Source of the DNA: Candidatus Uhrbacteria bacterium
Lineage (GTDB): Bacteria > Patescibacteriota > Patescibacteriia > UBA9934
Length of the DNA stretch: 64,000 nt
Reading direction: 5' to 3'
Assembly (NCBI GenBank): GCA_963822405.1
Contig: CAWGHH010000002.1
Location: forward strand, 23,569-87,568
Shown: positions 4,528 to 60,993 of the stretch, one piece after another
Layout of the letters: every line of letters starts with the position of its first letter
How positions within the stretch are numbered: position 1 is the first letter of the stretch
Notes under the pieces: generated by a model
Told to the model about the DNA's origin: nothing
The model's database searches: none
What the model saw: the letters and a program-made list of their open reading frames with translations, nothing else
Position numbers and translations under genes: made by a program

Positions 4528-5196
4528 ATGCGTCTTGCGCCCGTTGCTCTTGTTGTTCTTCTCTTGACTACAGTTGGCGCTGGTTGTACGAATCAGGCTC
4601 CAGCTGAGTCAGTTTCTCCTTCCACAGCCGTGAAAGGAGTAAGTGATCCTGCGGAGTCTTTTTCGAACCAACCAACAACCACACCTATGGCCACCTATAC
4701 CTACCAGGGACAGCTTCCAGAGAGTGAGATTACCAATAAAGTTGTGCGCATTACTACTGAGAAGGGTGATATTGTAATTGCGCTCTATCCAGACACTGCG
4801 CCACTAACGGTTTCAAACTTTGTTTCTTTGGCTGGCAAAGGTTTTTATGACGGTACTATTTTTCATCGCATCATTAAAGACTTCATGATCCAGGGTGGTG
4901 ATCCAACGGGCACAGGCATGGGTGGTCCAGGATATCAGTTTAAGGATGAGCTGAAGGATAAGCACACTTATGTTCGAGGCACAGTGGCCATGGCTAACTC
5001 GGGTCCGGATACAAACGGTAGCCAGTTCTTCATTATGCACGCTGACGTTCCATTGCCACACGCTTACTCTATTTTTGGAGAAGTTATTTCCGGGATGGAC
5101 GTAGTTGACGCTCTCGCTTCTACCACCGTAGACGGCAGTGATCGTCCACTCAAGGAACAGAAGATGACTAAGGTGACAGTTGAGGACGCAAAATGA
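4528..5196 (+). CDS. ppiB: cyclophilin-type peptidyl-prolyl cis-trans isomerase, lipoprotein
   Basis: [15 protein letters not shown]...[14 protein letters not shown] cyclophilin core. N-terminal signal peptide with lipobox VGAGC. Confidence 0.88.
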
Positions 5197-6602
5197 AATC
5201 AATAACGCAAAAACATTTCTACCAGTATCTCAAGTGTCCGTCATGGATCGCTCATGACGCTAAGGAAGCCAGACTTGAGAACAAGCTAAAAGACCGTCTG
5301 CAGCAGGACGGTCTTTTGTCGTCACATGAAAAGGAATTATTGAAGGGTCGCGACGTAATTGACGTCGGGGTCGACCCATGCGTCGACCCTGGCCACGGCG
5401 ACGTCGAAGAATTATTCGCGCGTACGCTTGAAGAAATGAAAAAAGGGACGCCTACTATTTATGGGGGAGTTCTGGTTCATGGTCGATTTGTGGCCGAACC
5501 GGATTTGCTTGAACGCGTGGAAGGGAAGTCAAAGCTTGGCAAATATTATTACGTAGCTTGTGACATAAAGCGATCAAGTAGGCTCAAAGAAGAATACAGA
5601 CTACAGGGCTGTTTTTACGCCGAACTTTTGAATTTGATTCAGGGCACTCGACCACTCCAAGGCTACATCATGCATCCTAATAAGGAGGTCGAGGCTTACT
5701 TGCTTGAGGAGACTGCGGTGAAATACCGGCTTACGCTTGATGCCATTGAGCGAATAATGGACGGGGAAGAGGAGCCTCATTTTTTGACCAGCGATTGTAA
5801 ACAGTCGCCATGGTTTTCTATTTGTAAGCAAGGCGCTATTGAATGTGACTCGCTGTCTAGACTGAATAGAATTTGGCGCAGTGAAGTTAGAATATTTGAA
5901 GAAGCTGGATTTAAAACTGTCACAGATTTTGCTAGACAAAATCCTGACCTAATTGCCGCGCGTACTTCTGGAATCACTAGGGACAGAATAGACTTTTTAC
6001 ATCTGCAGGCGCGAGCATTACTCGAAAACAGATTTCTCAAAGTCGGCTCGGTTGATCTGCCCGAGAGCGATCTCATTCTTGTGGTCGATATCGAAAGCGA
6101 TCCGTTGCGCGACGTTCACTATTTGTTTGGCGTACTCGAAAAAGGTGACGGCATAGATGTCTATCATTCTTTCTTAGCGAAAGACCCGAAAGACGAGCGC
6201 CGAGCTTGGGAAGACTTCATTGCTTTCATGAAGAATTATCCTGGCGTGCCAATTTATCATTACGGTTGGAGCGAGCAAGCTACATTTAAGGAGCTTGGCG
6301 AAAAATATGCCACGCCAATTGAAACGCTTGTCATGCTTGAAGAGCAGGGTGTTGATCTATTAATTCGGTTACGCGAAGCAGTTGTCTTTCCGTTGTCTTT
6401 CTATTCGCTCAAAGACATTGCGCAGTTTCTAGGTTTCAAATGGAGACATGCAGATGCCTCTGGTCTTAACTCCGTTCTCTGGTTTAACGAGTGGCTGACA
6501 AAGAAGGACGAGTCTGCACTTAAAGACATCATCGAGTACAATGAAGACGACGTCCGTGCGACTCTCGTTTTGATCGAATGGGCACAAAAAAACCTGAAGT
6601 AG
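5193..6602 (+). CDS. RecB-like nuclease, TM0106 family (RNase H-like C-terminal domain)
   Basis: 469 aa; C-terminal [11 protein letters not shown]...[17 protein letters not shown] exonuclease-like motifs. Carries one in-frame family-A palindromic repeat, translated as [10 protein letters not shown]. Confidence 0.55.
5367..5390. repeat. palindromic repeat family A, copy A1 (GGGGTCGAC-CCATGC-GTCGACCC), in-frame inside the nuclease CDS
   Basis: Perfect 8-9 bp inverted arms around a 6-nt spacer; same unit as 6603, 27827 and 28487. Confidence 0.85.
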
Positions 6603-6624
6603 TGGTCGACCCATGCGTCGACCA
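6603..6624. repeat. palindromic repeat family A, copy A2 (TGGTCGAC-CCATGC-GTCGACCA), intergenic
   Basis: Begins 1 nt after the nuclease stop codon and 9 nt before the next start; the hairpin could also act as a terminator. Confidence 0.85.
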
Positions 6625-6632
6625 AATCTCTT

Positions 6633-7442
6633 ATGCGAACACGCCCTCTCACTTGGAAATCTTTCTGGCCTCTTTTCCTAATTTTGATCATCGCTGGCGT
6701 CCTCAAGATCAAGACGCATTTTTCGCAACCAGTCGTGCCAACGGCTACTGTGCCGGCGGTGACGCATGAAGAAATTGTCGAGGTGCCAACCACCCCGACC
6801 GAAAGCGCGGGAGTGCCCGCGCCTGCAACCTCCCCCCAGCCCCCTCCTTCTGAAGGAGGGGGAGTAGGCGAGCATCCTGCCGAGTTCAACCTCGCCGTTC
6901 CGTTTTCATCACAGGCGCCGTTCATGAAATGGGACGCGTATCATGAGGAGTCATGTGAGGAGGCGTCGATTTTGATGACGCTCGAGTTTTATAAAGGCGC
7001 GAAGTCTGTTGATCCACAATTTGCCGACGACGAATATTTGAAAATAACAACGCTTGAAGATTCACTTGGTTATGGCTTGAGCATGACTGCCGAACAGACA
7101 GTCGACATCATTCAAAAGTACTCCGACTACTCGGCGCGCGTGATTGAGAATCCAACCGTCGATCAACTCAAAGAACTTCTAGTTAAGGGCGAGCCGATCA
7201 TCATTCCCGCCGCTGGTCGCAAGCTCGGCAATCCGTTCTTCACTGGTATTGGTCCGCTCTATCACATGCTCGTTATTCGTGGCTACACAAAAGACGGCAA
7301 GTTCATCACAAACGACCCCGGCACCCGCCACGGCGAAAACTACACCTACGACGCCTCCGTCCTCATGAACGCCATCGGCGACTGGAACAACGGCGACCCC
7401 GAACACGGCGCAAAACGCGTTGTGATTATTGAGTCAAAATAG
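6633..7442 (+). CDS. peptidase C39-like domain protein, membrane-anchored with Pro/Thr-rich linker
   Basis: N-terminal TM segment; C-terminal domain resembles the recalled C39-like/YvpB family. The linker carries the family-B palindrome, translated as SPQPPPSEGGGVGEHP. Confidence 0.5.
   Translation: MRTRPLTWKSFWPLFLILIIAGVLKIKTHFSQPVVPTATVPAVTHEEIVEVPTTPTESAGVPAPATSPQPPPSEGGGVGEHPAEFNLAVPFSSQAPFMKWDAYHEESCEEASILMTLEFYKGAKSVDPQFADDEYLKITTLEDSLGYGLSMTAEQTVDIIQKYSDYSARVIENPTVDQLKELLVKGEPIIIPAAGRKLGNPFFTGIGPLYHMLVIRGYTKDGKFITNDPGTRHGENYTYDASVLMNAIGDWNNGDPEHGAKRVVIIESK
6841..6861. repeat. palindromic repeat family B, copy B4 (CCCCTCCTTC-T-GAAGGAGGGG), in-frame in the peptidase linker
   Basis: 21-bp perfect palindrome; extended similarity to copy B5 covers 6832-6873. 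Confidence 0.8.
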
Positions 7443-8740: not shown

Positions 8741-8755
8741 TCTTGGATATTCTTT

Positions 8756-8781
8756 CCCCTTCCAGGGGGATAGAGGGGGTC
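8756..8781. repeat. palindromic repeat family B, copy B1 (CCCCTTCCAGGGGGATAGAGGGGGTC), intergenic
   Basis: Near-identical 27-mer to copy B3 at 51457-51483; contains a CCCCCT/AGGGGG hairpin. Confidence 0.8.
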
Positions 8782-9802: not shown

Positions 9803-10933
9803 GTGTCCAACTTATTTTCACAATTAAAGAGTTTGAAAAATAACCCCCAAGCTGGGGCTCTTTCTCTATCTGAGCATGAGACGGCTAAGGCTCGTCTCCT
9901 TTCCCGCGTGAGTGCAGACCTGCCAGCAGGCAATGAATCCAAGTCTTATGTTTCCTGGTATGTCAGTTCTTTCATTTCTAAGCCAGTGACCGTTGGCGTA
10001 GCGGTAGTGACAATTTTTACGGGAAGTTTGTCTACGGTAAGCGCTGCGTCTTCCAGTATTCCTGGCGATACCTTATATACGGTGAAGCGCATTACAGAAC
10101 AGGCACAGCTAAAACTGGCCTCACTAGACCGTCGAGCGATCCTTCACACGGAGTTCGCAGAACGCCGGTTGCGGGAGGCAGTCGAACTGCGGTCAGCTGA
10201 CACGGTTGACTCAGCTCATCAGACACTCGCTAAAACAGCCATGGTTGAGTATGCCTCAGAATTATTGCAAGCCTCGGCTGATCTGAAAAACTTGAAGAAC
10301 AATGTTGGTTCCTCGGCAGCTCTCGCAGTTGTCACAGATGTCCAGAACAAGATTGATTCAATGAAGGCGGTGATTGAGGAAACGGCTTCCACTAACTCTA
10401 CTTCAGCTGCTGGCACAGAAACTGTTGACGCCAAGCAAGCAGTAAAAGAAACCCAGGAGGTTGCTACCACGGTTGCGGTAGACGTACATGAGCAAGAAGC
10501 CACTGATAAATCTAGCCAAGAATTAAAGGCGATGTTTACAAAAGAACTTGGTTCTATAGAAGCCAGGCAGACCTTTGACGAACATAGACTGCAAACTATT
10601 GAAAAGAACGTGATCGGAAATGAGATGTTTGAGGGCGTGGCGGGAATTCCAGACAGTGATGATCTAAAAAGACTGAACTACGTTATTAAGCAAACCAAGC
10701 TCCAGATTCCAGAAGCCATGAATGGCTTTGCCGCTGGGGGATACAGAACAGCCTTCGCCACACTTCAAGGAGTAGACCAAGAACTGCTGACACTTGAAGC
10801 AAAGATTGCTGAGGTAGAAATCCTGATCATGCAAACTAGAGACGCTTCTGAGAAAGCGGGGTTAGAAACCCCGCCTTCCGAAACGCCGACATCCGATCTG
10901 GAAACCCCGCCTTCTGCGGCGCCAATGCCATAG
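9803..10933 (+). CDS. putative anti-sigma factor-like membrane protein (DUF5667-like, coiled-coil)
   Basis: Immediately downstream of the ECF sigma; one TM segment (VTVGVAVVTIFTG), then a long coiled-coil region. The C-terminal ETPPSETPTSDLETPPS tail is encoded by a GC palindrome. Confidence 0.5.
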   Translation: MSNLFSQLKSLKNNPQAGALSLSEHETAKARLLSRVSADLPAGNESKSYVSWYVSSFISKPVTVGVAVVTIFTGSLSTVSAASSSIPGDTLYTVKRITEQAQLKLASLDRRAILHTEFAERRLREAVELRSADTVDSAHQTLAKTAMVEYASELLQASADLKNLKNNVGSSAALAVVTDVQNKIDSMKAVIEETASTNSTSAAGTETVDAKQAVKETQEVATTVAVDVHEQEATDKSSQELKAMFTKELGSIEARQTFDEHRLQTIEKNVIGNEMFEGVAGIPDSDDLKRLNYVIKQTKLQIPEAMNGFAAGGYRTAFATLQGVDQELLTLEAKIAEVEILIMQTRDASEKAGLETPPSETPTSDLETPPSAAPMP

Positions 10934-16916: not shown

Positions 16917-19397
16917 GTGAAAAACAGCATTCTATTGTTCGTGTTCCTGACCGCGTGCATTTTCCCCCATGAACCATTGGTGGATGCGGATGGGGACGGT
17001 TATTGGGATTTTGAGGACTGTAATGACTCGGATGCGTCGATTAACCCCGGCGCGGAAGACATTATGTGCGAGGAGGTTGATCGCAACTGTGACGAGAACG
17101 TGGCGTACCCGCGCAATAGCACGTTCACGGACGCTGATGGTGATGGATTCGGTGACCCCGAAGCCTACATCGATCCATGTGCTGCCGTTCAGGGGGTCGA
17201 CAACCGCGACGATTGCAACGACGCGGATCCGGAGATTCATCCCGAACTTGAAGATCCGGCCGACGGAGTCGACAACGACTGCGACGGTGAGGTTGACGAG
17301 GACGCAGTGGTCGACGAAGACCTGGACGACGACGGTTACGGTGTGGACGACTGTGACGACACGAACGCGGGCATCAATCCCGATGCGGAGGAAATCTGCG
17401 ACGGGGTCGACAACGACTGTAACGGTTTGGTTGACGATGACGATACCGGTGTGGCCAGTCAGGCCACTTGGTACGTTGACGTTGACCATGACGGTTACGG
17501 GACGAGCGTGTCAGTCCTGGCTTGTGAAGAGCTGTCTGGCTACTCGGCCGACAACGGGGATTGCAATGACGAGAATTCGGACATTCACCCCGGGGCTGAT
17601 GAGTGGGACTGCTTGGATGTCACGGACTACAACTGTGACGGTCAAACGGGTTACACCGACGCTGACCTGGACTGCAGTCCTGCCTGTGAGGACTGTAACG
17701 ACCAGGACAAGAATTCCTATCCCGGCGCGTCAGAGGTTTGTGATAACGCCGACAACGATTGCAACAACATCGTGGACGATCCTGGCACGGTCACTGGCCA
17801 GAGTCCGTTCTACGCAGACCTTGATCATGACAGCTACGGAGACTTGAACTCTTTTGTGCTGGCTTGTTCTGTGCCAAACGGGTACACGGGCGACTCGACC
17901 GACTGCGATGACGGGAAAACACTCGTGCATCCAGGCGGCGTAGAGGTGTGTGACTCGAACAGCGTAGACGAAGACTGTGACGGAACAGCGAACGACGCTG
18001 ATAGTTCCGTGACCGGTAAATCTACGTTCAATAAAGATGTGGACGGTGATGGGTACGGCGGAGTGCTGACCATCGCCGCGTGCGTTGCGCCTCCGGGTTA
18101 TGTTGCCTTGATTGGCGACTGTGATGACTCGAGCGTTGCGTATCACCCGGGTGCACCCGAAGCTAGTTGTACAGATTCGCATGATTACAACTGTGACGGC
18201 GTAACTGGATATGTTGATCAAGACGGAGACGGCTCTCCGGCTTGCGAAGACTGCAACGACAACAACCCCAGCATTCATACCGGCGCCACAGAATTGTGCA
18301 ACGGTGTGGATGATAACTGTAACGGAACCGTAGACGGTTCAACTGAGGCCACGAATACAAATACTTACTACTTGGACGCAGATGGTGACACGTTCGGGAA
18401 ACTGAGTGCGACCACTAAGGCTTGTTCGTTACCGTCTGGCTACTCGTCGAATTCAACGGACTGTGATGACTCGAAAGTTGGGGTTAATCCCTCAGCGGTC
18501 GAAGTCTGCAACAGTATCGACGACAACTGTAACGGCCTGGCGGACGACGCCGACCCTGGCGTAACTGGTCGCGCTACGTACTATCGTGATGCGGACGGGG
18601 ACACTTTCGGGAGTTCGTCGACTACCAAGCTTGGTTGCGTTCAGCCTCCCGGTTACGTAGTCAGTTCGACTGACTGCAACGACGTCGTCAGCGCAATCAA
18701 TCCGAGCGCAGTTGAAATCTGCGACGTGAAAGACAACGACTGCGACGGCTTCGTTGATGACCAAGACCCGTCCATCACCGGCCAGACCAAGTGGTACGTG
18801 GATACGGATGGTGACGGTTACGGGAATCCGAACTCGTCGAAGCTCGTCTGTTCGCAACCGGCTAACTACGTCGTCAGCTCGACGGACTGCGATGACGCAA
18901 AGTCGGCCGTCAATCCGAGCGCGGTTGAGATCTGCGACGGGATAGACAACAACTGCGTTGGCGGCATTGACGACGGTCTAGCTACCAGTATTTGGTACGC
19001 CGACGTAGATGGTGACGGTTATCGGAATGTGAGTTCGTCGGTCACGGCGTGCGCTCGGCCTGCGGGCTATGTAGCGTCAACCGCCGGAGCGGATTGCGAT
19101 GACACAAACTCGCACGCTCAGACTACGGTTGGACCGGAGGTTTGCGACGGCTTCGACAATAACTGCGATGGTAATATCGACGAAACGTTCGGGACGCAGC
19201 CTTGGTACCCGGATACGGACGGCGATATGTACGGCCTGTTGTCGGGCATGGTTCGTAGCTGTTACCAGCTGCCTGGCTACGTTGACAACAAGTACGACTG
19301 CGACGACACGCGCAGTTATGTCCATCCGTCAGCGCAGGAGCTGTGCAACGGGATTGATGACAACTGCAACGTAACCGTTGACGAGAACTGCATTTGA
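16917..19397 (+). CDS. lipoprotein with about 17 tandem MopE-like Cys/Asp-rich putative metal-binding repeats
   Basis: GTG start; lipobox LTAC. The unit ...DCDDxxxxxxPGAxExCDGxDNDCDGxxDD and WYxDxDGDGYG recurs about every 70 aa. About 12% Asp and 8% Cys. Confidence 0.7.
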   Translation: MKNSILLFVFLTACIFPHEPLVDADGDGYWDFEDCNDSDASINPGAEDIMCEEVDRNCDENVAYPRNSTFTDADGDGFGDPEAYIDPCAAVQGVDNRDDCNDADPEIHPELEDPADGVDNDCDGEVDEDAVVDEDLDDDGYGVDDCDDTNAGINPDAEEICDGVDNDCNGLVDDDDTGVASQATWYVDVDHDGYGTSVSVLACEELSGYSADNGDCNDENSDIHPGADEWDCLDVTDYNCDGQTGYTDADLDCSPACEDCNDQDKNSYPGASEVCDNADNDCNNIVDDPGTVTGQSPFYADLDHDSYGDLNSFVLACSVPNGYTGDSTDCDDGKTLVHPGGVEVCDSNSVDEDCDGTANDADSSVTGKSTFNKDVDGDGYGGVLTIAACVAPPGYVALIGDCDDSSVAYHPGAPEASCTDSHDYNCDGVTGYVDQDGDGSPACEDCNDNNPSIHTGATELCNGVDDNCNGTVDGSTEATNTNTYYLDADGDTFGKLSATTKACSLPSGYSSNSTDCDDSKVGVNPSAVEVCNSIDDNCNGLADDADPGVTGRATYYRDADGDTFGSSSTTKLGCVQPPGYVVSSTDCNDVVSAINPSAVEICDVKDNDCDGFVDDQDPSITGQTKWYVDTDGDGYGNPNSSKLVCSQPANYVVSSTDCDDAKSAVNPSAVEICDGIDNNCVGGIDDGLATSIWYADVDGDGYRNVSSSVTACARPAGYVASTAGADCDDTNSHAQTTVGPEVCDGFDNNCDGNIDETFGTQPWYPDTDGDMYGLLSGMVRSCYQLPGYVDNKYDCDDTRSYVHPSAQELCNGIDDNCNVTVDENCI

Positions 19398-23327: not shown

Positions 23328-24005
23328 ATGCGCACCGTTGCGGTAATAGCTGGATATAACGAAGAGGCCCGGATTGCGGAAGCAATTAGGGACGCTTTGG
23401 TGTATGTGCCTTTAGTGGTTGTGGTCGACGATGGCAGTCGAGACAGAACCGGCGAAGTAGCCCTTAGTGCTGGGGCACACGTGCTCACTCACATTTTGAA
23501 CCGCGGACAAGGCGCGTCACTGCAGACTGGCATGGACTACGCCTTGCGAGTGTTAGAGGCTGATGTCATTGTTCACTTCGACGCTGATGGTCAAATGCGG
23601 GGGAGTGAGATTCCGATGATGGTCGAGCCGATTCTAACGGGCGAGGCTGACGTAGTGCTCGGTTCTAGGTTTCTTGGCCGTGAGGCGGAGAATATGCCTA
23701 CTATGCGTCGAGTGATGATTCGGTTGGGTGTTCTATTCACTCGCGGTCTTTCCGGAATTAAAGTGACGGACACGCATAACGGGTTTCGGGTGTTGTCGAG
23801 AAACGCCGCGTTAAAAATCCGCATCTCCCTTGATCGCATGGCGCACGCTTCAGAGATTCTCGACATTATCGTGAATAAGCGGTTGAAGTATGTCGAGCGT
23901 CCCGTGACCATTCGCTACAGTGAAGAGACTTTGAAGAAAGGGCAGTCAACGCTTAAGGCAATGGCTACAGCTAAAGATATTTTGAAAAAGAAACTTGTTG
24001 GCTAA
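23328..24005 (+). CDS. glycosyltransferase family 2 (polyprenol-phosphate sugar transferase-like)
   Basis: VVVDDGSRDRT and DADGQ motifs; 225 aa. Confidence 0.82.
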   Translation: MRTVAVIAGYNEEARIAEAIRDALVYVPLVVVVDDGSRDRTGEVALSAGAHVLTHILNRGQGASLQTGMDYALRVLEADVIVHFDADGQMRGSEIPMMVEPILTGEADVVLGSRFLGREAENMPTMRRVMIRLGVLFTRGLSGIKVTDTHNGFRVLSRNAALKIRISLDRMAHASEILDIIVNKRLKYVERPVTIRYSEETLKKGQSTLKAMATAKDILKKKLVG

Positions 24006-24339
24006 TATGATATTTCAAATTGCACTCGTAGTATTTGCAGCCTTCGCCATTTATAAAACTTGGATTCAATATTCAAAAAAAGAAGCGTCCAAATATTGGG
24101 CGATTGCTTTTTCGTGTTTGTGGCTGATAGTGATTGCCGTGGCCCTCGTTCCAAATTTGGCCAACGTGCTCGCGAACCTTGTCGGCATTGGTCGCGGTGC
24201 GGACGTGATTGTTTACTCGGCGATTGTAATTCTGACGTATACGGTTTATCGACTAATGTTGAAGCAACAGAAGTTGTCTGCGGAGATGACGGAACTTGTT
24301 CGCGCGGTAGCCATTGAGAAAGCCAAGAAAGCCAGTTGA
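23995..24339 (+). CDS. DUF2304-family small membrane protein
   Basis: Two TM segments plus a C-terminal amphipathic helix; its position directly after a GT2 gene is the usual context for DUF2304. Confidence 0.55.
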   Translation: MLANMIFQIALVVFAAFAIYKTWIQYSKKEASKYWAIAFSCLWLIVIAVALVPNLANVLANLVGIGRGADVIVYSAIVILTYTVYRLMLKQQKLSAEMTELVRAVAIEKAKKAS

Positions 24340-24351
24340 TCCTCCCCCCGA

Positions 24352-24374
24352 CCCCCTCCACTTCGTGGAGGGGG
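24352..24374. repeat. palindromic repeat family B, copy B5 (CCCCCTCCAC-TTC-GTGGAGGGGG), intergenic
   Basis: 10-bp perfect arms; the flanks 24341-24382 resemble copy B4. Lies between the DUF2304 stop and the GT4 ATG at 24392. Confidence 0.8.
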
Positions 24375-24391
24375 AGGAGCTCACCAATTCT

Positions 24392-25504
24392 ATGAAAATA
24401 GCTATTGTTACCCCTGTTTTCCCTCCTTATAAGGGTGGTATTGGGCATGTGGCCGAGGCACAGGCTAATTCTTTGAAGGCACTAGGACATGAGGTGGTTG
24501 TGTTTGCGCCGTCGACCATGAAGCCATGGTTTTCTTACGGTAATGCCTCCATAACTCCACAACTTCTTTCTAAACTTTATAACTTTGATCTCATTCACGT
24601 TCACTACCCGTGCTACGGAACGGACGTCTTCGCGGCACTCGCCTCGATCGTGCATAAAACGCCCCTTGTGCTCACGTATCACATGAAAGCGGTGACGAAT
24701 GATTGGCGCAATATAATTTTTACTTTACACCGTTGGTTCATTGAGCCGATAATTTTCAAGATCGCTAAAATAGTGTTTGTCAGTACGTTCGAATATGCCG
24801 AGGCTTCCGGTATTCAGCATCCTCATCTTGTCGAAATGCCCTTCGGCGTAGACGGCGCGCGCTTCGCACCCGGTCCGGGTGGCGCGACCTTCCCCCTTCC
24901 AGGGGGCTCGCCCGTAGGGCGGTCTACGCCCGAGGGACCAGAGGGGGTCGCAGGGGCGCGCCTCCTCTTCGTGGGTGGTCTCGACCGCGCACACGACTTC
25001 AAAGGCGTCGACGTTCTTCTCCGAGCCTTTGCCACGCTTCCAGCTTCGGCGAGTTTACTTATTGCCGGCGACGGTGATCTTCGACTATTCTACGAGAGTC
25101 TCGCGCGCGATCTTAAAATTGCGGATCGGGTACAATTTCTTGGTCGAGTTTCTGACGAGGACTTGCCGAACGTATATCGCTCAGCTGATGTTCATGTATT
25201 GCCGAGTATCAATGGTGGCGAGGCTTTTGGTTTAGTTACACTTGAAGCCGCTGCCTCGGGTTTGCCGTCAGTAGTTAGCGACTTGCCTGGGGTTAGAACG
25301 CTCGTCGTAAAGGGTCAGACTGGATACTTGGCCAAGCCTGGAGATATTGATGACTTAGCTTATCAACTGCAAAAACTAGTAGATCACCCAGAAGACGCCA
25401 TAATTATGGGGGCAGCGGCTAGAGTTAGGGTCATGGAAAGTTACGACAGCGGGGCTATTGCGCGCTCATTACTCCAGGCGTATAACGGGATTCTGAAGGT
25501 ATGA
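24392..25504 (+). CDS. glycosyltransferase family 4 with an in-frame palindromic-repeat insertion in the interdomain linker
   Basis: MKIAIVTPVFPPYKGGIG N-terminal GT4 motif and C-terminal E..E region (GEAFGLVTLEAAASGLP). The insert FPLPGGSPVGRSTPEGPEGVAGAR corresponds to repeat B2. ATG 24392 is preferred over the upstream ORF start at 24314. Confidence 0.78.
   Translation: MKIAIVTPVFPPYKGGIGHVAEAQANSLKALGHEVVVFAPSTMKPWFSYGNASITPQLLSKLYNFDLIHVHYPCYGTDVFAALASIVHKTPLVLTYHMKAVTNDWRNIIFTLHRWFIEPIIFKIAKIVFVSTFEYAEASGIQHPHLVEMPFGVDGARFAPGPGGATFPLPGGSPVGRSTPEGPEGVAGARLLFVGGLDRAHDFKGVDVLLRAFATLPASASLLIAGDGDLRLFYESLARDLKIADRVQFLGRVSDEDLPNVYRSADVHVLPSINGGEAFGLVTLEAAASGLPSVVSDLPGVRTLVVKGQTGYLAKPGDIDDLAYQLQKLVDHPEDAIIMGAAARVRVMESYDSGAIARSLLQAYNGILKV
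24892..24950. repeat. palindromic repeat family B, composite copy B2 (CCCCCTTCCAGGGGG...GCCCGTAGGGC...GAGGGGGTCG), inside the GT4 CDS
   Basis: Shares the CCCCCTTCCAGGGGG and AGAGGGGGTCG ends with B1/B3, with an extra internal hairpin. Confidence 0.75.
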
Positions 25505-26730: not shown

Positions 26731-28695
26731 TTACTCAAACACCATCACTGTCACCTCGTGGTCGCCGAAGATCCAGGATGTGTCCGTGATGGTTTTTGAT
26801 TGTTCGATGACACGTTTGGAATCCCACCAATAATCGTCCATGACAAAGAAGACGAGCTGTGCGCCGGTGAGTGTGCGAGCTTGATCAACGGTTTCTTTGG
26901 TTGGTGCTTTGGCCATGTCGAGATAAAGCTGATAAAGGGGGCCACCGGTCGGGATAGGATAGAAATAGATATCGTCGTGATAATATTTTTTGAAACCGAG
27001 TTTTGCAATTGCGGCAGATGATGTTGCTTGGTTTGCAAGGACAACGTAATCGCGTCCCGCCGCATATTTATCAATGGCCGCCACCGCGTCAAAGTCAGCT
27101 TGCGTCACATTGAACCCCGCGGACGATGCATACGCGTCATACCGCGGGTACGCGCCATACACGGTCGACACGAACACGACGCCGATGACGACAATGGCAA
27201 ACGCGCCCCGCGCGTTGTAAGGGCCGACTTCTATGTCGGCCCCTCTCTCGATCGCATGTGGAATGTATGGCGTCAGGAACAACACCGTCAGGGTCAGCAT
27301 TCTGGCCGCAAAATCCGTCCGTTCATACGAAATCAAAAACGGGAAATCAAAGAACAACCCGAGGATAAGGAAATTCGAAAACGCAATCCCCGCACAAATC
27401 AACGGGACGAATTGTCGTAGGGGCCGACTTCTATGTCGGCCCTCTTGGAGCATCCGCCACGCCCCCACAATCCCCAAAACAACGGTCACGATAAATATAT
27501 TCCCGATGATCAGATACGCCGTATCACCCCACGCATTAAAATGCGTTCCGACAAATGCGGTTAACGGCAGAGCGGTCAGGTCGTGGATGGTCGGCAGGTG
27601 CAATCCAATCGGCATGTGCGCCTTCATGGATTGCACGATAAATGCCGCCGGCAATGCAACGGCCGATGCGATTGCGACGATGATCGTCGCGGCTGTAAGG
27701 GTCGACTTCGATGTCGACCCTCTCTCCGCCACGTACATCATCCCCACGAAAAACACCGCCGGCAACCCCGCAATCGGATGTGCACATAGCGCCGCGAGTG
27801 CGAAAATACCCGTGATCATCGTGGTAGGGGTCGACCCATGCGTCGACCCATCCGGATCCGCGCGTGTCGTGCCCAACAACACCGCCATCGCCGTAAACAC
27901 AAACGCCAACGCTTGTGGGGTGGTCTGCACGAACGCGGCGATAGGCAGAACCAACAACATCGCCGCCGTAAGGGTCGACTTCGATGTCGACCCTTGATTG
28001 GTCCGCATGAGCACCGCCGCCGGAATCAACGTCGCCGCCAAAAGTGGCACGAGGTACACGTCCACGAGCATTAGTGGCAGGTGGAGCACCTTCAGCGCGA
28101 ACAATTCGATCACATATTCGCCAATGTAGTAGAGGGGTTTCGGGGTGATCGTTCCAAAGTCGGCAATATGTTGGATGGTTGCGCGATGCAAGAATGGATC
28201 GAACCCATACCCAAGCGGATATACCGTCGCTACAAATGACAACGCCGAGAACAGGGTCATGACAATCACGCCGAAGGCCATCGCGGTTGTAAGGGTCGAC
28301 TTCAATGTCGACCCTCTCTTCATCATCACCGCCGCACACACCGTTGGTATGAACAGCCACACCAGGTTGGCCGGCGAAATCACCAACCACGGCGAGCGTA
28401 CCGATTCGAGAATCGGATGAGTGAGGATAGCGTGCCACCACGCGCCGAGGGACGCGACTGCAATTACCGCGAGGAAAACCGCTGTAGGGGTCGACCCCCG
28501 CGTCGACCCTCGTTGAACTGTGACCAAGGGAAAGGATTTTGATAGCAAGAAAATCGCCCCGATCGCCATAGCTGCGCAGACAATCAGTCCGACAGTTGTC
28601 ACATTCATGACATAATAGAGAAAAGTAGCCAGAATGCTATAAATAGCTAAACCGGCGCCAGACCAAATGATTCCTTGAAGAAAGCGATTAAACAT
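26731..28695 (-). CDS. polytopic integral membrane protein (GT-C-like?) carrying seven in-frame family-A palindromic repeat insertions
   Basis: 654 aa with more than 12 hydrophobic segments. The peptides [55 protein letters not shown] and RGADIEVGP map exactly onto repeats A9 to A3. Confidence 0.6.
   Translation of the reverse strand: MFNRFLQGIIWSGAGLAIYSILATFLYYVMNVTTVGLIVCAAMAIGAIFLLSKSFPLVTVQRGSTRGSTPTAVFLAVIAVASLGAWWHAILTHPILESVRSPWLVISPANLVWLFIPTVCAAVMMKRGSTLKSTLTTAMAFGVIVMTLFSALSFVATVYPLGYGFDPFLHRATIQHIADFGTITPKPLYYIGEYVIELFALKVLHLPLMLVDVYLVPLLAATLIPAAVLMRTNQGSTSKSTLTAAMLLVLPIAAFVQTTPQALAFVFTAMAVLLGTTRADPDGSTHGSTPTTMITGIFALAALCAHPIAGLPAVFFVGMMYVAERGSTSKSTLTAATIIVAIASAVALPAAFIVQSMKAHMPIGLHLPTIHDLTALPLTAFVGTHFNAWGDTAYLIIGNIFIVTVVLGIVGAWRMLQEGRHRSRPLRQFVPLICAGIAFSNFLILGLFFDFPFLISYERTDFAARMLTLTVLFLTPYIPHAIERGADIEVGPYNARGAFAIVVIGVVFVSTVYGAYPRYDAYASSAGFNVTQADFDAVAAIDKYAAGRDYVVLANQATSSAAIAKLGFKKYYHDDIYFYPIPTGGPLYQLYLDMAKAPTKETVDQARTLTGAQLVFFVMDDYWWDSKRVIEQSKTITDTSWIFGDHEVTVMVFE
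27221..27243. repeat. palindromic repeat family A, copy A3 (GGGCCGAC-TTCTAT-GTCGGCCC)
   Basis: GCCGAC variant of the unit; preceded by GTAA; read in-frame as GADIEVGP on the minus strand. Confidence 0.85.
27421..27442. repeat. palindromic repeat family A, copy A4 (GGGCCGAC-TTCTAT-GTCGGCCC)
   Basis: Identical core to A3 but read in a different codon phase (GRHRSRP); preceded by GTAG. Confidence 0.85.
27699..27720. repeat. palindromic repeat family A, copy A5 (GGGTCGAC-TTCGAT-GTCGACCC)
   Basis: Preceded by GTAA; translated as RGSTSKSTL. Confidence 0.85.
27827..27849. repeat. palindromic repeat family A, copy A6 (GGGGTCGAC-CCATGC-GTCGACCC)
   Basis: Identical to copy A1 at 5367; preceded by GTAG; translated as DGSTHGSTP. 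Confidence 0.85.
27972..27993. repeat. palindromic repeat family A, copy A7 (GGGTCGAC-TTCGAT-GTCGACCC)
   Basis: Identical to A5; preceded by GTAA; translated as QGSTSKSTL. Confidence 0.85.
28293..28314. repeat. palindromic repeat family A, copy A8 (GGGTCGAC-TTCAAT-GTCGACCC)
   Basis: Preceded by GTAA; translated as RGSTLKSTL. Confidence 0.85.
28487..28509. repeat. palindromic repeat family A, copy A9 (GGGGTCGAC-CCCCGC-GTCGACCC)
   Basis: Preceded by GTAG; translated as RGSTRGSTP. Confidence 0.85.
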
Positions 28696-38053: not shown

Positions 38054-38486
38054 GAAAACACCTCCTGGAGGAGGGTATCAATTCCCTGATTCTTTTAAAA
38101 GGGGGAGGCATCTTGTGCGTTTATAATAGTTGTCGGGAGAGATATTGTTCTGTTGGGGGCACTCGAGTTTGGTGTACCGCAAGTGTACACCTGACGGACG
38201 GTTTGCAGAGAATTAAATCAGTAACTTGAGGTTACCAGACACGCCAGTATCGTAGTATTTCGATCTCATCGAGGAGATCCGCGGCGTTTAACACAGCTCA
38301 ATGTTTTCAGGCAGATGTTTGTGCTCGATAACGAAGAAGGTACCCCGTTGAGAAATCCAAAATTCCCATATCCAGACCTGACCCCATCTTACGTTATTTG
38401 GATGTCATCTCTAATAAAAGGTCACTTCCAATAGCCCACCTCTAGGCCCTTCGCCTACGCTCAGGGACTAATGCAGTTATCCGTCA

Positions 38487-39581
38487 CTACCACCGCACAA
38501 TGAATTTCACTATCTTGAAATAGAATTCCATGATCGGGTTTGCGAATCTTGTCACCAGAGGGTTCTCCATAGAAGATTCTTGAAACAGAATCGAGCCGAC
38601 ACAACTCGCCAATATAGTTTTGTCCGAAATCTGACGCATGGCCTGCGTTTGTTTCCGTTTGCCGAGCCAGAGTTTCCACGTAGAAGGTTTGATCCAATAC
38701 TTGAGAACCTTTACGCGTTCGCTGACCCAGCCACCTTTAAGCGCAAAGACCCAGAGGCCTAGCTCGAGCGGAATCAGAATTGGTAGGATAAGAAGCAACG
38801 TCGGCCACTTATAGAACATGAGTAGCACAGCGTAACGGTTCCGTTCCATCCAGTAGAACTTAGTGATTGATTTGGAGAATTCGTATTTGTGATAAAAGAT
38901 GGAATCGCGTACACAAACCACACGGTATTTATTGATTTTGAGTCGCAAAGACCATTCTAAATCTTCGTGATACATGAAGAAATTTTCATCCCATGCGCCG
39001 AGCGCTTGAACGACACTCGAACGTACCATGAACGCCGCGCCACTTGCGTAGGGAACGTCGTAAACAGCCGGAAGGTTTAGGTCGGTCAGCTTTTTTTGAT
39101 AATCGTTGCAGTATCCGAAACCTAGATAGTGGAAAGCGTTACCGGAAGTATTCACGAGCTCCTTGTTATTAAATAGAAGAATCATGGATTGAGCGATCCC
39201 AATAGTTGAATCGGCTTCCATGGCTTCGACTAGCTTCAAGATACAATCTTTGCCTAGGGCTGCGTCATTATTGTGAAAGAAGACGTAATCAAAGCCTTTA
39301 TCAAGCGCCCAGGCGACGCCGGCGTTGTTGCCAATACCAAAACCGCCATTTTCTGGTTGCGGTAAGTAGGTGACATGTGGAATTTCTTTGCCGGAGAGGG
39401 GGAGGATGTGTTCTTCCACGTACTTATTCGACAATCCATGAACTGGATGTGGATTATCCACGATCACAAATTCGACTAACTCTTTTGGGTAGTTAAGTGT
39501 TTTGAGTGCATCGACTACGTCTGGAAAATATGGCTCAGAATGAAATGAAAGATAAATAACCGCTACTTTTTTATTCGGCAT
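38487..39581 (-). CDS. glycosyltransferase family 2
   Basis: VIYLSFHSEPYFPDVVDAL...VIVDNPHP N-terminal GT-A fold, DAAL/DxD region; 364 aa with a C-terminal membrane-associated extension. Confidence 0.75.
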   Translation of the reverse strand: MPNKKVAVIYLSFHSEPYFPDVVDALKTLNYPKELVEFVIVDNPHPVHGLSNKYVEEHILPLSGKEIPHVTYLPQPENGGFGIGNNAGVAWALDKGFDYVFFHNNDAALGKDCILKLVEAMEADSTIGIAQSMILLFNNKELVNTSGNAFHYLGFGYCNDYQKKLTDLNLPAVYDVPYASGAAFMVRSSVVQALGAWDENFFMYHEDLEWSLRLKINKYRVVCVRDSIFYHKYEFSKSITKFYWMERNRYAVLLMFYKWPTLLLILPILIPLELGLWVFALKGGWVSERVKVLKYWIKPSTWKLWLGKRKQTQAMRQISDKTILASCVGSILFQESSMENPLVTRFANPIMEFYFKIVKFIVRW

Positions 39582-50150: not shown

Positions 50151-51230
50151 ATGAAAACAGTTTTATTCACAGGCGGTGGCACTCTTGGTCCGGTTACGCC
50201 TCTTTTATCAGCGGCGCGTCTTTTGCGTGAAATAAATCCGGACGTGAAAATTGTTTGGATCGGTACACCGGACGGGCCGGAACGTGAGCTTGTTGAACGG
50301 GACAGCTATGAGTTTCGCTCGCTCAAGGCACCGAAGCTAGATCGAACTCGACCGTGGACTTTGCCGTTAGTTCTTCCGCAATTTATTATCAGTTGTTTTC
50401 AGGCGTACGCTATGTTGCAGGACATTGATCCGTTTACGGTTGTTAGCGCGGGTGCGTACGTGAGCGTGCCGGTGGCCTTCATGGCGAAGACGCTTGGTAT
50501 CCCGGTAGTTATTGAACAGCTCGATGTTGTTCCTGGGATTGCGAATAAATTAATGGCGCGGGTAGCGAAAAAGATTTTTGTTACTTGGCCAGAAAATCTT
50601 TCAGCGTTTCCAAAAGGGAAGACAGAAGTGGCCGGTGGTTCTGTTCGCAAATCTATGTTGCGCGGCGAAGCACACTTGGCGCGCGAACGGTTCGGTCTTA
50701 GACGAACATTGCCGACCATACTCGTGATCGGCGGGGGTACAGGTGCGGCGAGCATGAACGAAATATTTTTGACGATCGGTCCTGAGCTTGTAAAATTCGC
50801 CAATGTGATCCATCTAACCGGCAAGGGCAAGATGTTGCCGGGGCTTGAGCAGATCGGTGACGGATACAAGGCCGTTGAATTTTTGGGCGAGTCACTTGCG
50901 GATGCCTACGCCCTTGCTGACGTCGTCGTTGCTCGCGCTGGGATGGGAACCATCATGGAGGTGGCCGCGCTTAAGAAGCCAACGATTCTCATTCCTATTC
51001 CGGGTACGCACCAAGAAGCAAATGCTAAAGCTGTGGAATCTCGTGGCGCGGCACTTTCGCTATTCGGCGACGCAACTCCGCAAAATCTTTTGCAGGCTAT
51101 TAAGAAACTTATTCAAGACGATCTTAAGCGAGCCGAACTTTCTGAGGCAGTAGGGAAGCTCTTCCTATTTAATCTCGACGAAATGTTGGTATCAGCGGTA
51201 GAGTATCCTCATGACCTGGGAAATGCCTGA
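50151..51230 (+). CDS. murG: undecaprenyldiphospho-muramoylpentapeptide beta-N-acetylglucosaminyltransferase
   Basis: MKTVLFTGGGTLGPVTPLL N-terminal G-loop and C-terminal GGGTGAASMNE motif (GT28); 359 aa. Confidence 0.9.
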   Translation: MKTVLFTGGGTLGPVTPLLSAARLLREINPDVKIVWIGTPDGPERELVERDSYEFRSLKAPKLDRTRPWTLPLVLPQFIISCFQAYAMLQDIDPFTVVSAGAYVSVPVAFMAKTLGIPVVIEQLDVVPGIANKLMARVAKKIFVTWPENLSAFPKGKTEVAGGSVRKSMLRGEAHLARERFGLRRTLPTILVIGGGTGAASMNEIFLTIGPELVKFANVIHLTGKGKMLPGLEQIGDGYKAVEFLGESLADAYALADVVVARAGMGTIMEVAALKKPTILIPIPGTHQEANAKAVESRGAALSLFGDATPQNLLQAIKKLIQDDLKRAELSEAVGKLFLFNLDEMLVSAVEYPHDLGNA

Positions 51231-51969
51231 TAGAAACTGGGTTAAGTTACTCGCGCCATCTGTCTTTTTTGGTCTTATTGCCGTTGTGCTTCTTTTGAAA
51301 TTTATTACGAGCGACGGAATACCAACGGTAGCCTCCTATCAATCATCCTGTGCAGAGCAAAATGGCGAATGGCTATTTAATAGCGCCAAGCCTACCTGCG
51401 TTTTCCCGGGCGGTCGCCTCGTCGTCTTCGACGATCGTCAGGACGGTTCGCTCCTTCCCCCTTCCAGGGGGATAGAGGGGGTCGTAAGCGCGTCAGCGCC
51501 CTCCGGCAGGGTGGCCACCTCCGACGACGCTTCTGTGCCGTCGACCGACCCCGCTCCCGAATGTGGCTACGGCCAGGTTGGTTCATTCGCCGATTATCCC
51601 GCAACGGACACATATCGAGGTCGCCCCCACAAGCCCGACTTCTCGACTTTTCCCGACGCCGCAAAGTATCGAACTGCAATTATGAAAGACGTCACACGTG
51701 GGGTGAACTTCGCTGGAGTGTATGTGATTTCTACTTGGGGTCGAGCACAGACTTTTAACGAAACAAAAACTATCGGATTCGCGATCGTTGATGCCCGAGA
51801 CGGTCGAATTATTGATTACAGTGAGCGATCCGATTATGTAAGTTGGTCGGGCGCAGTTTTGTCAGTTGATTATCAAAAAGACAGCCGGTTCTTTCGAGTG
51901 CATTCGTCTACTGGCCCCTTCGCTGAAATCATTTCGAACGGCAACGAGGTTCAATGCGGTCGCTATTAA
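51211..51969 (+). CDS. hypothetical membrane-anchored protein with an in-frame family-B repeat
   Basis: N-terminal TM segment (VFFGLIAVVLLLKFI); the LLPPSRGIEGVV segment is encoded by repeat B3; no domain recognised. Confidence 0.5.
   Translation: MTWEMPDRNWVKLLAPSVFFGLIAVVLLLKFITSDGIPTVASYQSSCAEQNGEWLFNSAKPTCVFPGGRLVVFDDRQDGSLLPPSRGIEGVVSASAPSGRVATSDDASVPSTDPAPECGYGQVGSFADYPATDTYRGRPHKPDFSTFPDAAKYRTAIMKDVTRGVNFAGVYVISTWGRAQTFNETKTIGFAIVDARDGRIIDYSERSDYVSWSGAVLSVDYQKDSRFFRVHSSTGPFAEIISNGNEVQCGRY
51457..51483. repeat. palindromic repeat family B, copy B3 (CCCCCTTCCAGGGGGATAGAGGGGGTC), inside a CDS
   Basis: 27-mer nearly identical to copy B1 at 8756. Confidence 0.8.
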
Positions 51970-59329: not shown

Positions 59330-59695
59330 ATGGCACTTGCCGTATTGGATTCGAATGCTCTAATTTACCATGTGGGTGGATTGCAGACGATTCCCGATTT
59401 GCTCACGAGCACCTATGCAGTTTCCTCGGTTATTGTTTTTGAGTTATTGCGCTTTCCTGGGATGTCAAAACAGGAAGAGTCATCTTTAATCAAGGCTATT
59501 GATTATTGTGAGATTGTAGGTGTTACTGAGGCGATTGCTTTTCGAGCGGCTTTTTTGAGTCGGATACGTCCACGTGGTAAAGCTATGGATATATTTATCG
59601 CGGCAACTGCCCTGGAATTAGACATTCCTTTGATTACGGGTAACATTAAAGACTTTAAGAATATTCCCGGTCTTCAGGTTAAGAGTGAATTTTGA
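59330..59695 (+). CDS. vapC: PIN-domain ribonuclease toxin (VapC-like)
   Basis: VLDSNALIY (Asp1), FELL (Glu), DIFIAATALELDIPLITGNIKDF (Asp3/Asp4 region); 121 aa. Confidence 0.8.
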   Translation: MALAVLDSNALIYHVGGLQTIPDLLTSTYAVSSVIVFELLRFPGMSKQEESSLIKAIDYCEIVGVTEAIAFRAAFLSRIRPRGKAMDIFIAATALELDIPLITGNIKDFKNIPGLQVKSEF

Positions 59696-60993
59696 TTATG
59701 TTGCACCAGCTTAAAAAACTTGTTCCTCGTCCGGTACTTCAGATCTATCACTTCGCCCTCGCAAAAACGGCTGAGGCTGTTTATCGGCATCCGTCGGAGA
59801 AGCTCGTCGTCATCGGCGTCACGGGGACAAACGGCAAGTCATCAACGGTTAATTTCATCGCACAGATTTTGAATAACCTCGGCGAAACTGTTGGTTATAC
59901 GTCGACTGCCGGTTTTTCGATCGCGGGGAAGGAAGTCGAGAATAAGATGAAGATGACCATGCCGGGGAGATTCTATTTGCAGAAGATCATGAGCGAGATG
60001 GTGAAGGAGAAATGCGCGTACGCTGTTATTGAAACGTCTAGTCAAGGACTCGACCAGTTCCGCCACCTCGGTATCAATTATGACGTCGCTGTTTTTACAA
60101 ACCTCACACCGGAACATATTGAAGCGCACGGAGGATTCGAAAATTACAAGAAGGCAAAAGGGAAGTTGTTCGAGCATCTGACAAATCGTCGAAAGAAACA
60201 CTTTGAAGGACATGAAGTGCCGAAGACAATTATCGTGAATGGTGACGACGAACACTCGGCGTACTTTGCATCTTTTCCGGCCGATAAACATGTGTCATTT
60301 AGTTTTACGGAAAAGGTGATTCGGGCGGGTGACGTGATTCACCCTGTCGACAAGCTACCATTACGCGCCGAGTTCGAGCAGAAGAATGCGCTGGCTGCTA
60401 TTGCCACGGTTGAGGCTCTAGGTTTCCCATTGAAGCGTGTGCTCGACGCAGCTGAGTTGCTCCGACCACTCGCTGGCCGTTTCGAAAAGATCGAGCAAGG
60501 TCAGCCTTTTGCGGTTATTGTCGACTACGCGTATGAACCTTATGCGCTCCAGGCACTATATGATGCTGTGAGTGGGCCGACATCGAAGTCGGCCCTTACC
60601 TCGAGGATCATCGGTGTACACGGTTCGGCGGGGGGAGGGCGTGATATTGCGCGTCGTCCTATCATCGGCAAACTCGCCGGTGAACACGAGGCTGTAGTGA
60701 TTGTGACGAATGAGGATCCGTACGATGAGGATCCGCGAGAGATCATTGAGGCCGTTGCGTCGGGCGCTCGCGAAGCGGGGAAGATTGAGGGAAAAGATTT
60801 GTTCTTGGTCGACGACCGCAGAGAAGCCATTGAGAAAGCGTTCGAGCTCGCCAAACCGGGTGATACTGTTTTATTAACAGGCAAAGGTTCGGAACCGGTG
60901 ATGGCTGTGGCTGGCGGAAAGAAAATTGCCTGGGATGATAGAATTGCTGCGCGAGAAATCTTAGCTCAGATGGGGTATCATAAAGCCGTATGA
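59692..60993 (+). CDS. murE: Mur ligase, MurE-like (UDP-MurNAc-L-Ala-D-Glu:diamino acid ligase)
   Basis: P-loop VIGVTGTNGKSST and the IETSSQGL motif (MurE-type E.SSHGL); 433 aa with a short N-terminal domain; 4-nt overlap with the PIN gene. Confidence 0.72.
   Translation: MIMLHQLKKLVPRPVLQIYHFALAKTAEAVYRHPSEKLVVIGVTGTNGKSSTVNFIAQILNNLGETVGYTSTAGFSIAGKEVENKMKMTMPGRFYLQKIMSEMVKEKCAYAVIETSSQGLDQFRHLGINYDVAVFTNLTPEHIEAHGGFENYKKAKGKLFEHLTNRRKKHFEGHEVPKTIIVNGDDEHSAYFASFPADKHVSFSFTEKVIRAGDVIHPVDKLPLRAEFEQKNALAAIATVEALGFPLKRVLDAAELLRPLAGRFEKIEQGQPFAVIVDYAYEPYALQALYDAVSGPTSKSALTSRIIGVHGSAGGGRDIARRPIIGKLAGEHEAVVIVTNEDPYDEDPREIIEAVASGAREAGKIEGKDLFLVDDRREAIEKAFELAKPGDTVLLTGKGSEPVMAVAGGKKIAWDDRIAAREILAQMGYHKAV

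Follow-up and report, generated by a model that had tools for sequence, protein, structure and literature searches.

How does the same short palindrome come to lie in frame within one gene, directly behind the stop codon of that gene, and again in a different gene 22 kb away? The question is raised by a 64,000-nt stretch of DNA from Candidatus Uhrbacteria bacterium, a member of the Patescibacteria or Candidate Phyla Radiation (CPR) (GenBank assembly GCA_963822405.1, contig CAWGHH010000002.1, forward-strand positions 23,569 to 87,568). This stretch is here called the window, and positions are counted from its first base. The palindrome is a GC-rich DNA hairpin preceded by a tetranucleotide tag, GTAG or GTAA. 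The tag, the GCCGAC variants of the stem, and the other hairpin families resident in the same DNA identify the element as REP-like, i.e., as resembling bacterial REPs (repetitive extragenic palindromes). On balance, we consider it probable that the element is a REP-type repeat of a CPR genome, spread, by analogy, in the manner of repeats served by a REP-associated tyrosine transposase (RAYT).

Anatomy and dispersal of a tagged hairpin

The copy called A1 has the structure GGGTCGAC-CCATGC-GTCGACCC, and its 23-nt core, GGGGTCGACCCATGCGTCGACCC, occupies bp 5367-5389. The window holds seven occurrences of the pattern GGTCGAC-N6-GTCGACC, whereas dinucleotide shuffles lead one to expect 0.01. A repeat search and a hairpin scan add three copies, at 27221, 27421, and 60574, of a compensatory stem variant, GGGCCGAC-N6-GTCGGCCC. 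The family in the window totals ten copies, as follows: A1, A2, seven copies in a membrane-protein gene, and one in a MurE-like gene, with start positions 5368, 6603, 27221, 27421, 27698, 27828, 27970, 28292, 28488, and 60574. The unit of about 26 nt is composed of a 4-nt tag, an 8-nt stem arm, a 6-nt loop, and the second 8-nt arm, and the stems are GC-rich and perfect. GTAG or GTAA stands immediately 5′ of the stem in nine of the ten; the exception is A1, with GTCG. When folded as DNA, the copies have energies between −7.7 and −10.1 kcal/mol, with z from −2.9 to −6.9. The window contains 15 perfect GC-rich hairpins whose stem is 8 bp or longer, where 1.8 are expected, an excess of about 8-fold. 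Changes in the stem come in pairs, GTCGAC becoming GCCGAC/GTCGGC or GTCGAT/ATCGAC (the latter in the related stretches L004, L002, and L128). That is, for each of the stem variants GTCGAC, GCCGAC, and GTCGAT, the complement is always present on the other arm. Across the Patescibacteria loci, GTAG, GTAA, or GTAC adjoins 20 of 49 GC-rich perfect hairpins, against about 7% expected.

A1 (bp 5364-5389, + strand) consists of the degenerate tag GTCG at 5364-5367, GGGTCGAC, CCATGC, and GTCGACCC. As the sequence-only reading of this DNA had held, it lies in frame in the gene of a RecB-like nuclease. The open reading frame (ORF; 5193-6602, + strand) is intact and belongs to the TM0106 family, with an RNase_H_2 domain (PF13482) and a weak Cas4 match in Pfam, and with a full-length match to TIGR03491 at 310 bits. 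A1 is in the sense orientation and encodes VGVDPCVDP. The claim that A1 is 100% identical to the copy at 27827 holds for the 23 nt of the core (27827-27849) and ends at the 24th base, which is T in one and A in the other. A2 (6599-6624, + strand) consists of the tag GTAG at 6599-6602, TGGTCGAC, CCATGC, and GTCGACCA. It had been placed behind the nuclease stop codon in a 30-nt spacer, and this is where it lies: the stop codon TAG (6600-6602) is the TAG of the A2 tag, the stem T-GGTCGAC/GTCGACC-A spans 6603-6624, so that the exact GGTCGAC starts 1 nt past the stop, and the next ORF, encoding a C39-like peptidase, has its ATG at 6633. The bases downstream of A2 are AAATCTCTTATG, with no T-run. 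An intrinsic terminator at A2 was considered and rejected, since the T-run is missing and the remaining copies are inside ORFs.

The membrane-protein gene (26731-28695, − strand) encodes a polytopic protein of 654 residues and hosts the seven copies S1 to S7. The protein has no match in Pfam or NCBIfam; the gene is conserved in Patescibacteria, next to genes for a CDP-alcohol phosphatidyltransferase and for family 4 glycosyltransferases (GT4). Each of the seven has its tag on the + strand and is antisense with respect to the gene. S1 (28484-28509) is GTAG GGGTCGAC ccccgc GTCGACCC, read as RGSTRGSTPT; S2 (28289-28315) is GTAA GGGTCGAC ttcaat GTCGACCC, read as RGSTLKSTLT. S3 (27968-27995) and S5 (27695-27721) are both GTAA GGGTCGAC ttcgat GTCGACCC, read as QGSTSKSTLT and RGSTSKSTLT, respectively. 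S4 (27824-27849), the A6 of the sequence-only reading, is GTAG GGGTCGAC ccatgc GTCGACCC. S6 (27417-27442; GTAG) and S7 (27217-27242; GTAA) share GGGCCGAC ttctat GTCGGCCC and are read as EGRHRSRPL and RGADIEVGPY. Three reading frames are thus used in one gene, the RGSTxxST(P/L)T frame five times and each of the others once.

The tenth copy (60574-60599, − strand) lies 32 kb past the membrane-gene cluster and in the opposite orientation. On the + strand, it reads GGGCCGAC atcgaa GTCGGCCC TTAC, so that its GTAA tag is on the − strand. It is antisense and in frame within a MurE-like ligase ORF (59692-60993), encodes SGPTSKSALT, and gives the MurE-like protein five more residues than a solved MurE-like chain has at the hairpin-encoded loop. 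Confinement of the element to a 23-kb interval, which would have spoken against a dispersed family, therefore does not hold.

Nine of the ten window copies are intragenic, A2 being the sole extragenic one. All are singletons; within the membrane gene, successive copies point the same way, at distances of 129-321 bp. The identical DNA is read in various frames, on both strands, and at A2 not at all. Because frames and strands vary from copy to copy, the repeat is a DNA-level unit rather than a protein motif. A GSTxxSTxT linker repeated at the protein level would account for the five of the seven membrane-protein copies that read GSTxxST(P/L)T; against it are the three frames in that gene, the fourth reading in the nuclease, and the non-coding A2, and the motif was rejected for this diversity of frames. 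Chance is opposed by the seven exact-pattern copies against 0.01 expected, and an assembly artefact by the presence of the elements in independent assemblies from JGI, ENA, NCBI, and Logan. We regard these explanations, taken together, as hardly credible.

Filled and empty sites in related genomes

Syntenic DNA was compared in eight relatives, five for the membrane gene (L001, L002, L003, L128, and L129) and three for the nuclease (L004, L005, and L006). Homologues of the two host proteins derive from metagenome-assembled genomes (MAGs) of Patescibacteria, the closest showing 71% identity in the case of the membrane protein and 85-86% in that of the nuclease. At A2, the site is vacant in L005 (TAA|TATG) and L006 (TAA|TATGCAA), and compared with these the window is longer by 28 nt. 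L004 also carries a 28-nt insertion here, GTAA-GGGCCGAT-CCATGC-ATCGGCCC, with the same loop and two compensatory changes in the stem.

The VDPCVDP segment of the nuclease is likewise absent from most orthologues. At the A1 site, 16 of 18 aligned orthologues, L006 among them, are free of an insert (..VVEIxxD-DxE..). The two closest, L005 and L004, carry an intact hairpin of a second family at this site (L005 ~1240-1270; L004 ~10030-10060), namely GGACATGGC-gac-GCCATGTCC followed by GTAC, in reverse orientation. In the DNA alignment, A1 is directly adjoined in the window by GGCCACGGCGAC (5393-5404, + strand), which is probably, to judge from its sequence, the left-arm remnant of an older GGACATGGC-gac-GCCATGTCC hairpin. 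The second family is also found in metK (ORF 1007-2068), where GTAC GGACTTGGC gac GCCAAGTCC CTAC (1301-1321) lies within a 24-nt insertion that is missing from the 90%-identical metK of L004. The general form of this family is GGAC(A/T)(T)GGC-gac-GCC(A)(A/T)GTCC with GTAC/CTAC flanks. The metK hairpin is enclosed by longer arms, CCCCGCCCCGT...ACGGGGCGGGG, which suggests nesting.

Codon alignment of the membrane gene in six genomes shows that each of the seven sites is vacant in some genomes and occupied by different hairpin families in others. S2 is empty in L003, L129, and L128; S3 in L003; S4 in L003 and L129; and S5 in L003, L129, and L001. The families filling the sites are GGGTCGAC-N6, GGGCCGAY-N6, GGGCGGGG-caag-CCCCGCCC, GCGGGGTT-aaa-AACCCCGC, GGACGGGG-cgag-CCCCGTCC, GGGTCGGTC-aca-GACCGACCC, and CCCCCCTCTT-acg-AAGAGGGGGG. 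Read on the coding strand, nearly all of these hairpins have YTAC or GTAC adjoining the 3′ arm, at the same codon. Within one genome, a family is shared among sites; between genomes, the families differ. Decayed copies are found at S4 and S5 of L002. Inserts measure 24-39 nt across sites, or 8-13 codons. Hairpins coincide with 8 of the 10 unique sites at which the window has a specific insertion of at least five residues, compared with 6.7% of random segments from the same genes.

The sites themselves are short loops rich in Lys and Arg, and the empty orthologous sites have A-rich Lys/Arg codons, e.g., AAAAAACGT. In AlphaFold2 (AF2) models, the membrane-protein inserts lie between helices, and for four of them the predicted local distance difference test (pLDDT) score of the segment is below 50. 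Hydropathy together with AF2 secondary structure also places all seven between helices, with S3 to S7 each two hydrophobic segments apart, a spacing that suggests that these five would face the same, cytoplasmic side of the membrane. The A1 peptide (residues 58-67) is modelled as coil, with pLDDT below 50 at 62-69. The models thus agree with a placement of A1 and the membrane inserts at positions predicted to tolerate them.

The tagged hairpin is also present in other genes of other Patescibacteria: at L001 8538, in an ORF of 562 residues; at L020 4790, in an ORF for a CCA-adding-like enzyme; and at L060 5519, in a TruB gene. In the Patescibacteria loci, 14 of 15 tagged copies are deep within long ORFs. 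The exact 22-mer is uncommon among JGI metagenomes, where it is found on six contigs, none of them syntenic with the window, and four of its seven copies there are GTAG-tagged. The proposal that the palindrome is a dispersed, proliferating family rather than a local duplication is therefore supported by the MurE-like copy, the three frames, the use of both strands, the polymorphic orthologous sites, and the occurrence of the same tagged hairpin in other Patescibacteria genes and in other phyla.

A dispersed family does not by itself require an enzyme of its own. Gene conversion from copy to copy, or template switching at existing palindromes during replication, could generate and spread hairpins that persist as neutral passengers of a restricted number of permissive sites. 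Such recombination is a serious rival, although we judge it unlikely. The same codon sites hold different families in different genomes while orientation and tag codon stay constant, a re-use that resembles replacement at an old site more than independent insertion. Families are shared across sites within a genome (S2, S3, and S5 in the window; S3 and S7 in L001), and A1 directly adjoins the remnant of an older hairpin. On the other side, A2, metK, and the S2 to S5 sites are cleanly empty in relatives and offer no prior palindrome to convert, and a conserved 5′ tetranucleotide has no role in pure conversion.

Probable kinship with REP elements and the question of an enzyme

A REP-type repeat spread in the RAYT manner, the reading that we prefer, finds its closest likeness in GTAG REPs of the group-3 type, i.e., short perfect palindromes mobilized by RAYT (TnpA-REP). 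The window copies fall within the 20-50 nt expected of a stem-loop palindrome of this kind, with a unit of about 26 nt. They have GTAG, or the near variant GTAA, 5′ of the stem in nine of ten cases, and they form sub-families with complementary stems alongside several coexisting families. The anatomy matches the descriptions of Corneloup 2021 (PMC8266576) and Di Nocera 2013 (PMC3733652). The latter reports GTAG-tagged families with stems of 6-9 bp, several per genome; sub-families that differ at complementary stem residues; tags that often supply the TAG stop codon of flanking ORFs, as A2 does here; and some REPs wholly inside ORFs, many of them in repair genes including recB, and also in truB (PMC3733652), to be compared with the in-frame copies in a recB-type gene and in truB described above. 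A search through the text and supplements of PMC3733652 gave no stem of the GGGCCGA/GGGTCGA type. A search of a library of papers gave no report of REPs in CPR.

The REPs known so far come mostly from intergenic spaces, whereas the REP-like elements of this CPR genome are predominantly intragenic. In this respect, they recall the Rickettsia palindromic elements (RPE), which are likewise in-frame palindromes in conserved genes of a small genome, encode extra peptide segments, and differ in presence between species. RPE-1, however, measures about 100-150 bp and encodes 30-50 residues, whereas the elements here are of 24-30 nt and 8-13 residues, and no insert of the RPE-1 type is present. The short rickettsial repeats RPE-4 and RPE-6 are classed as REPs with a CGTC tag (Di Nocera, PMC3733652), compared with GTAG here.

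The distribution beyond Patescibacteria was surveyed by scanning a collection with one genome per species for the pattern GTAR-GGGYCGAY-N6-RTCGRCCC. At least 119 genome stretches match, from many phyla. Among the matches listed, the majority are from Oscillospiraceae and other Clostridia; also among those listed are Bacteroidaceae/Alloprevotella, Nitrospirota, Acidobacteriota, Chloroflexota, Planctomycetota, WOR-3, Coatesbacteria, Eremiobacterota, and two Patescibacteria MAGs. Stems are perfectly complementary in 139 of the 155 matches listed; independent variation at the degenerate positions would make this 25%. Many of the matches listed form inverted pairs 40-150 bp apart, like classical REP dimers, and such pairs are common in the loci of Oscillospiraceae.

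RAYT genes were sought in six-frame ORFs of the window and of all loci, using phmmer with the E. coli RayT and then a hidden Markov model built from the hits. RAYT-like ORFs were found in L084 (Lawsonibacter), L087 (labelled Bacteroidaceae), L025 (Flavonifractor), and L100 (Coatesbacteria), and a fragment in L008 (Nitrospirota). The best family of these ORFs is NF047646, the REP-associated tyrosine transposase (E = 5e-18 to 5e-13), and the L100 ORF passes the Pfam Y1_Tnp threshold. In three cases, hairpins lie in frame within the transposase ORF itself (L084 4086-4577; L087 1908-2405; L025 7033-7803). The internal hairpin is GTAG-GGGCCGAT, presumably the cognate one, and encodes VVGADVLIGP and GPMGTSAPT; L084 has two inverted copies that match the pattern, and L087 and L025 have homologous peptides. 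The association of this tagged hairpin class with RAYT-like genes in other phyla is a further likeness to GTAG REPs and a further argument against recombination as the sole agent of spread.

A mechanism can be proposed by analogy with characterized REPs. The single-stranded hairpin and its tag would be the substrate of a RAYT, an enzyme of the HUH/Y1 class, which would cut and rejoin single-stranded DNA and in this way spread copies; gene conversion may homogenize them afterwards. Because the genome is nearly all coding and its spacers measure only some tens of bases, an incoming copy would mostly land inside a gene. The copies that survive would be those that are in frame, free of stop codons, and located in tolerant surface or inter-helix loops, where they would be nearly neutral. 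They would be translated as 8-13 extra residues whose sequence is set by the frame alone, the forms seen being GSTxxST(P/L)T, GRxxxRPL, and (V/A)DxxV(D/G)P. Where a copy lands at the end of a gene, its tag may itself provide the stop codon, of which A2 is an example. The ends of IS200/IS605 insertion sequences (IS608, ISDra2) offer a related case, a hairpin with a 5′ guide tetranucleotide that is recognized as single-stranded DNA by an HUH/Y1 enzyme; their hairpins are subterminal, and they differ in having a transposase gene between two different ends, whereas the element here is a single hairpin unit. Short GC-rich hairpins that invade the coding sequence of a compact genome are also known from yeast mitochondria, as mobile GC clusters and as byps. 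These are organellar and lie in an AT-rich context, and the ribosome bypasses byps. For the window, it is simpler to assume ordinary read-through, because every intragenic copy is in frame and free of stop codons.

The orientation of the copies relative to their host genes calls for separate consideration. In the Patescibacteria loci, the intragenic tag is antisense to the host gene at about 13 independent sites and sense at one. The sole sense copy is A1, in which the tag is mutated. From the stop codon contained in the tag, an antisense share of only about 60% would be predicted. In the other phyla, the probable intragenic copies divide into 14 antisense and 8 sense. A replication-strand bias was rejected: the copies of the membrane gene lie on one strand and the MurE copy on the other, and GC skew is uniformly positive across the window. 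The bias tracks transcription rather than replication, because these opposite-strand copies are both antisense to their genes.

Several points weigh against identification with REPs spread by a RAYT or mark differences from the known GTAG REPs, and they should be stated together. The antisense bias of about 13:1 is not predicted by the REP/RAYT model. GTAG REPs are mostly extragenic and often 3′ of genes, whereas here all but one of the ten copies lie within genes. The inverted doublets known as REPINs (REP doublets that form hairpins) or BIMEs (bacterial interspersed mosaic elements) are not seen, the window copies being single. The loop is of 6 nt, compared with the common 2-4 nt, and the host has a reduced genome. 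The census covers the window, with ten copies in 64 kb, seven of them in one gene. The collection scan had the tag built into its pattern and is thus no test of tag conservation outside Patescibacteria. The RAYT-like ORFs score below the curated NCBIfam cut-off of 80 bits. Finally, hmmsearch found no RAYT-like ORF, either in the window or across the roughly 190 kb of DNA from related Patescibacteria that it covered, a result that would also fit spread by recombination.

The orientation bias bears as well on the possibility that the hairpin is a selected signal, i.e., an mRNA stabilizer or terminator, a translational pause before transmembrane segments, a protein-binding site, or an inverted-pair DNA-uptake sequence. 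The bias relative to transcription would suit such a role, as would the compensatory changes that keep the stem paired, the position of A2 right behind a stop codon, like many REPs, and the position of each membrane-gene copy just upstream of a hydrophobic helix. The sites, however, are dispensable, being empty in close relatives; two copies in L002 have decayed; unrelated stem sequences occupy the same sites in related genomes; and A2 is without a T-run. An Rfam search of the window matched three tRNAs and gave no RNA family over the hairpin. The 8-mer arm alone is found outside hairpins at only two sites in the window, 17194 and 17404, unlike uptake sequences, and this candidate was rejected, as single arms almost never stand alone. 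A selected function is, in our estimate, improbable, more so than recombination.

A broader proposal can be built on the REP-type reading. It is that, in ultra-compact CPR genomes, REP-like hairpins have moved from intergenic into coding DNA as their chief habitat, and that these hairpins account for most lineage-specific indels of conserved proteins. Their turnover would take place at fixed landing codons of cytoplasmic loops, with one hairpin family succeeding another at a given codon, nearly always antisense and maybe without a resident RAYT. We offer this extension tentatively, as a possibility that we would not yet favour.

Other repeats of the window and implications

Further repeats accompany the tagged hairpin. 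At 6805-6862, the composite GCGCGGG-agtg-CCCGCGC + CCCCCTCCTT-ctg-AAGGAGGGGG lies in frame in the C39-like peptidase ORF, and the same two-hairpin composite is present at L129 6011-6068 in a different gene (GT4). Its occurrence in unlike genes makes it a third dispersed family. An untagged family, GCGGGGTT-aNa-AACCCCGC followed by CTT, is found at 10856-10874 in the window and at L001 10884 and 18902, L129 1985, L128 10988, and L005 386; it fills S3 to S5 of the membrane gene in some Patescibacteria genomes. The sequence CCTTCCCCCTTCCAGGGGG(ATAGAGGGGGTC) occurs three times (8752-8781, 24888-24906, and 51454-51483), with one copy intergenic, one in ORF 51211-51969, and one in a GT4 gene (24314-25504), the last within a window-specific insertion of about 14 residues. 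A CCCCCTCCAC-ttc-GTGGAGGGGG hairpin at 24352-24374 lies in a short spacer after the stop codon of ORF 23995-24339; some 12 nt separate its GGAGG-rich right arm from the likely ATG of a GT4 gene downstream (~24390), so that the arm may coincide in part with the ribosome-binding site.

Two gene ends 36 kb apart (2062-2114 and 38430-38482) carry the copies of a 53-nt inverted repeat with 79% complementarity. One copy is just past the metK stop codon, the other just downstream of ORF 38487-39581 (− strand), and the repeat is unrelated to the tagged hairpin family. A large ORF at 16917-19397 has Cys-rich repeats of the CDGxDNDCDG type and is MopE-like according to the annotation of relatives; it explains the direct-repeat families D1-D3, D7, and D8 as well as the lone GGGTCGAC 8-mers at 17194 and 17404. 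The MAG that supplied L004 and L020 (GCA_964348985.1) is titled "uncultured Gammaproteobacteria bacterium". Its nuclease and metK are 86-90% identical to those of the window; the genes are of Patescibacteria type, and the title looks wrong.

If the REP-type reading is true, REP elements exist in the Candidate Phyla Radiation, and they would be a main source of short insertions in conserved proteins of these streamlined genomes, as they are at eight of ten sites in the window. For annotation and structure modelling, segments of 8-13 residues that appear as low-confidence loops would then be footprints of selfish DNA rather than functional motifs. The presence or absence of copies would serve as a marker by which CPR strains could be followed through metagenomes. 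The re-use of sites and the antisense bias would together offer a concrete way into the question of how REPs spread. Should insertion prove to be almost exclusively antisense, this would point to a transcription-coupled or RNA-level constraint of a kind that has not been described for REPs.

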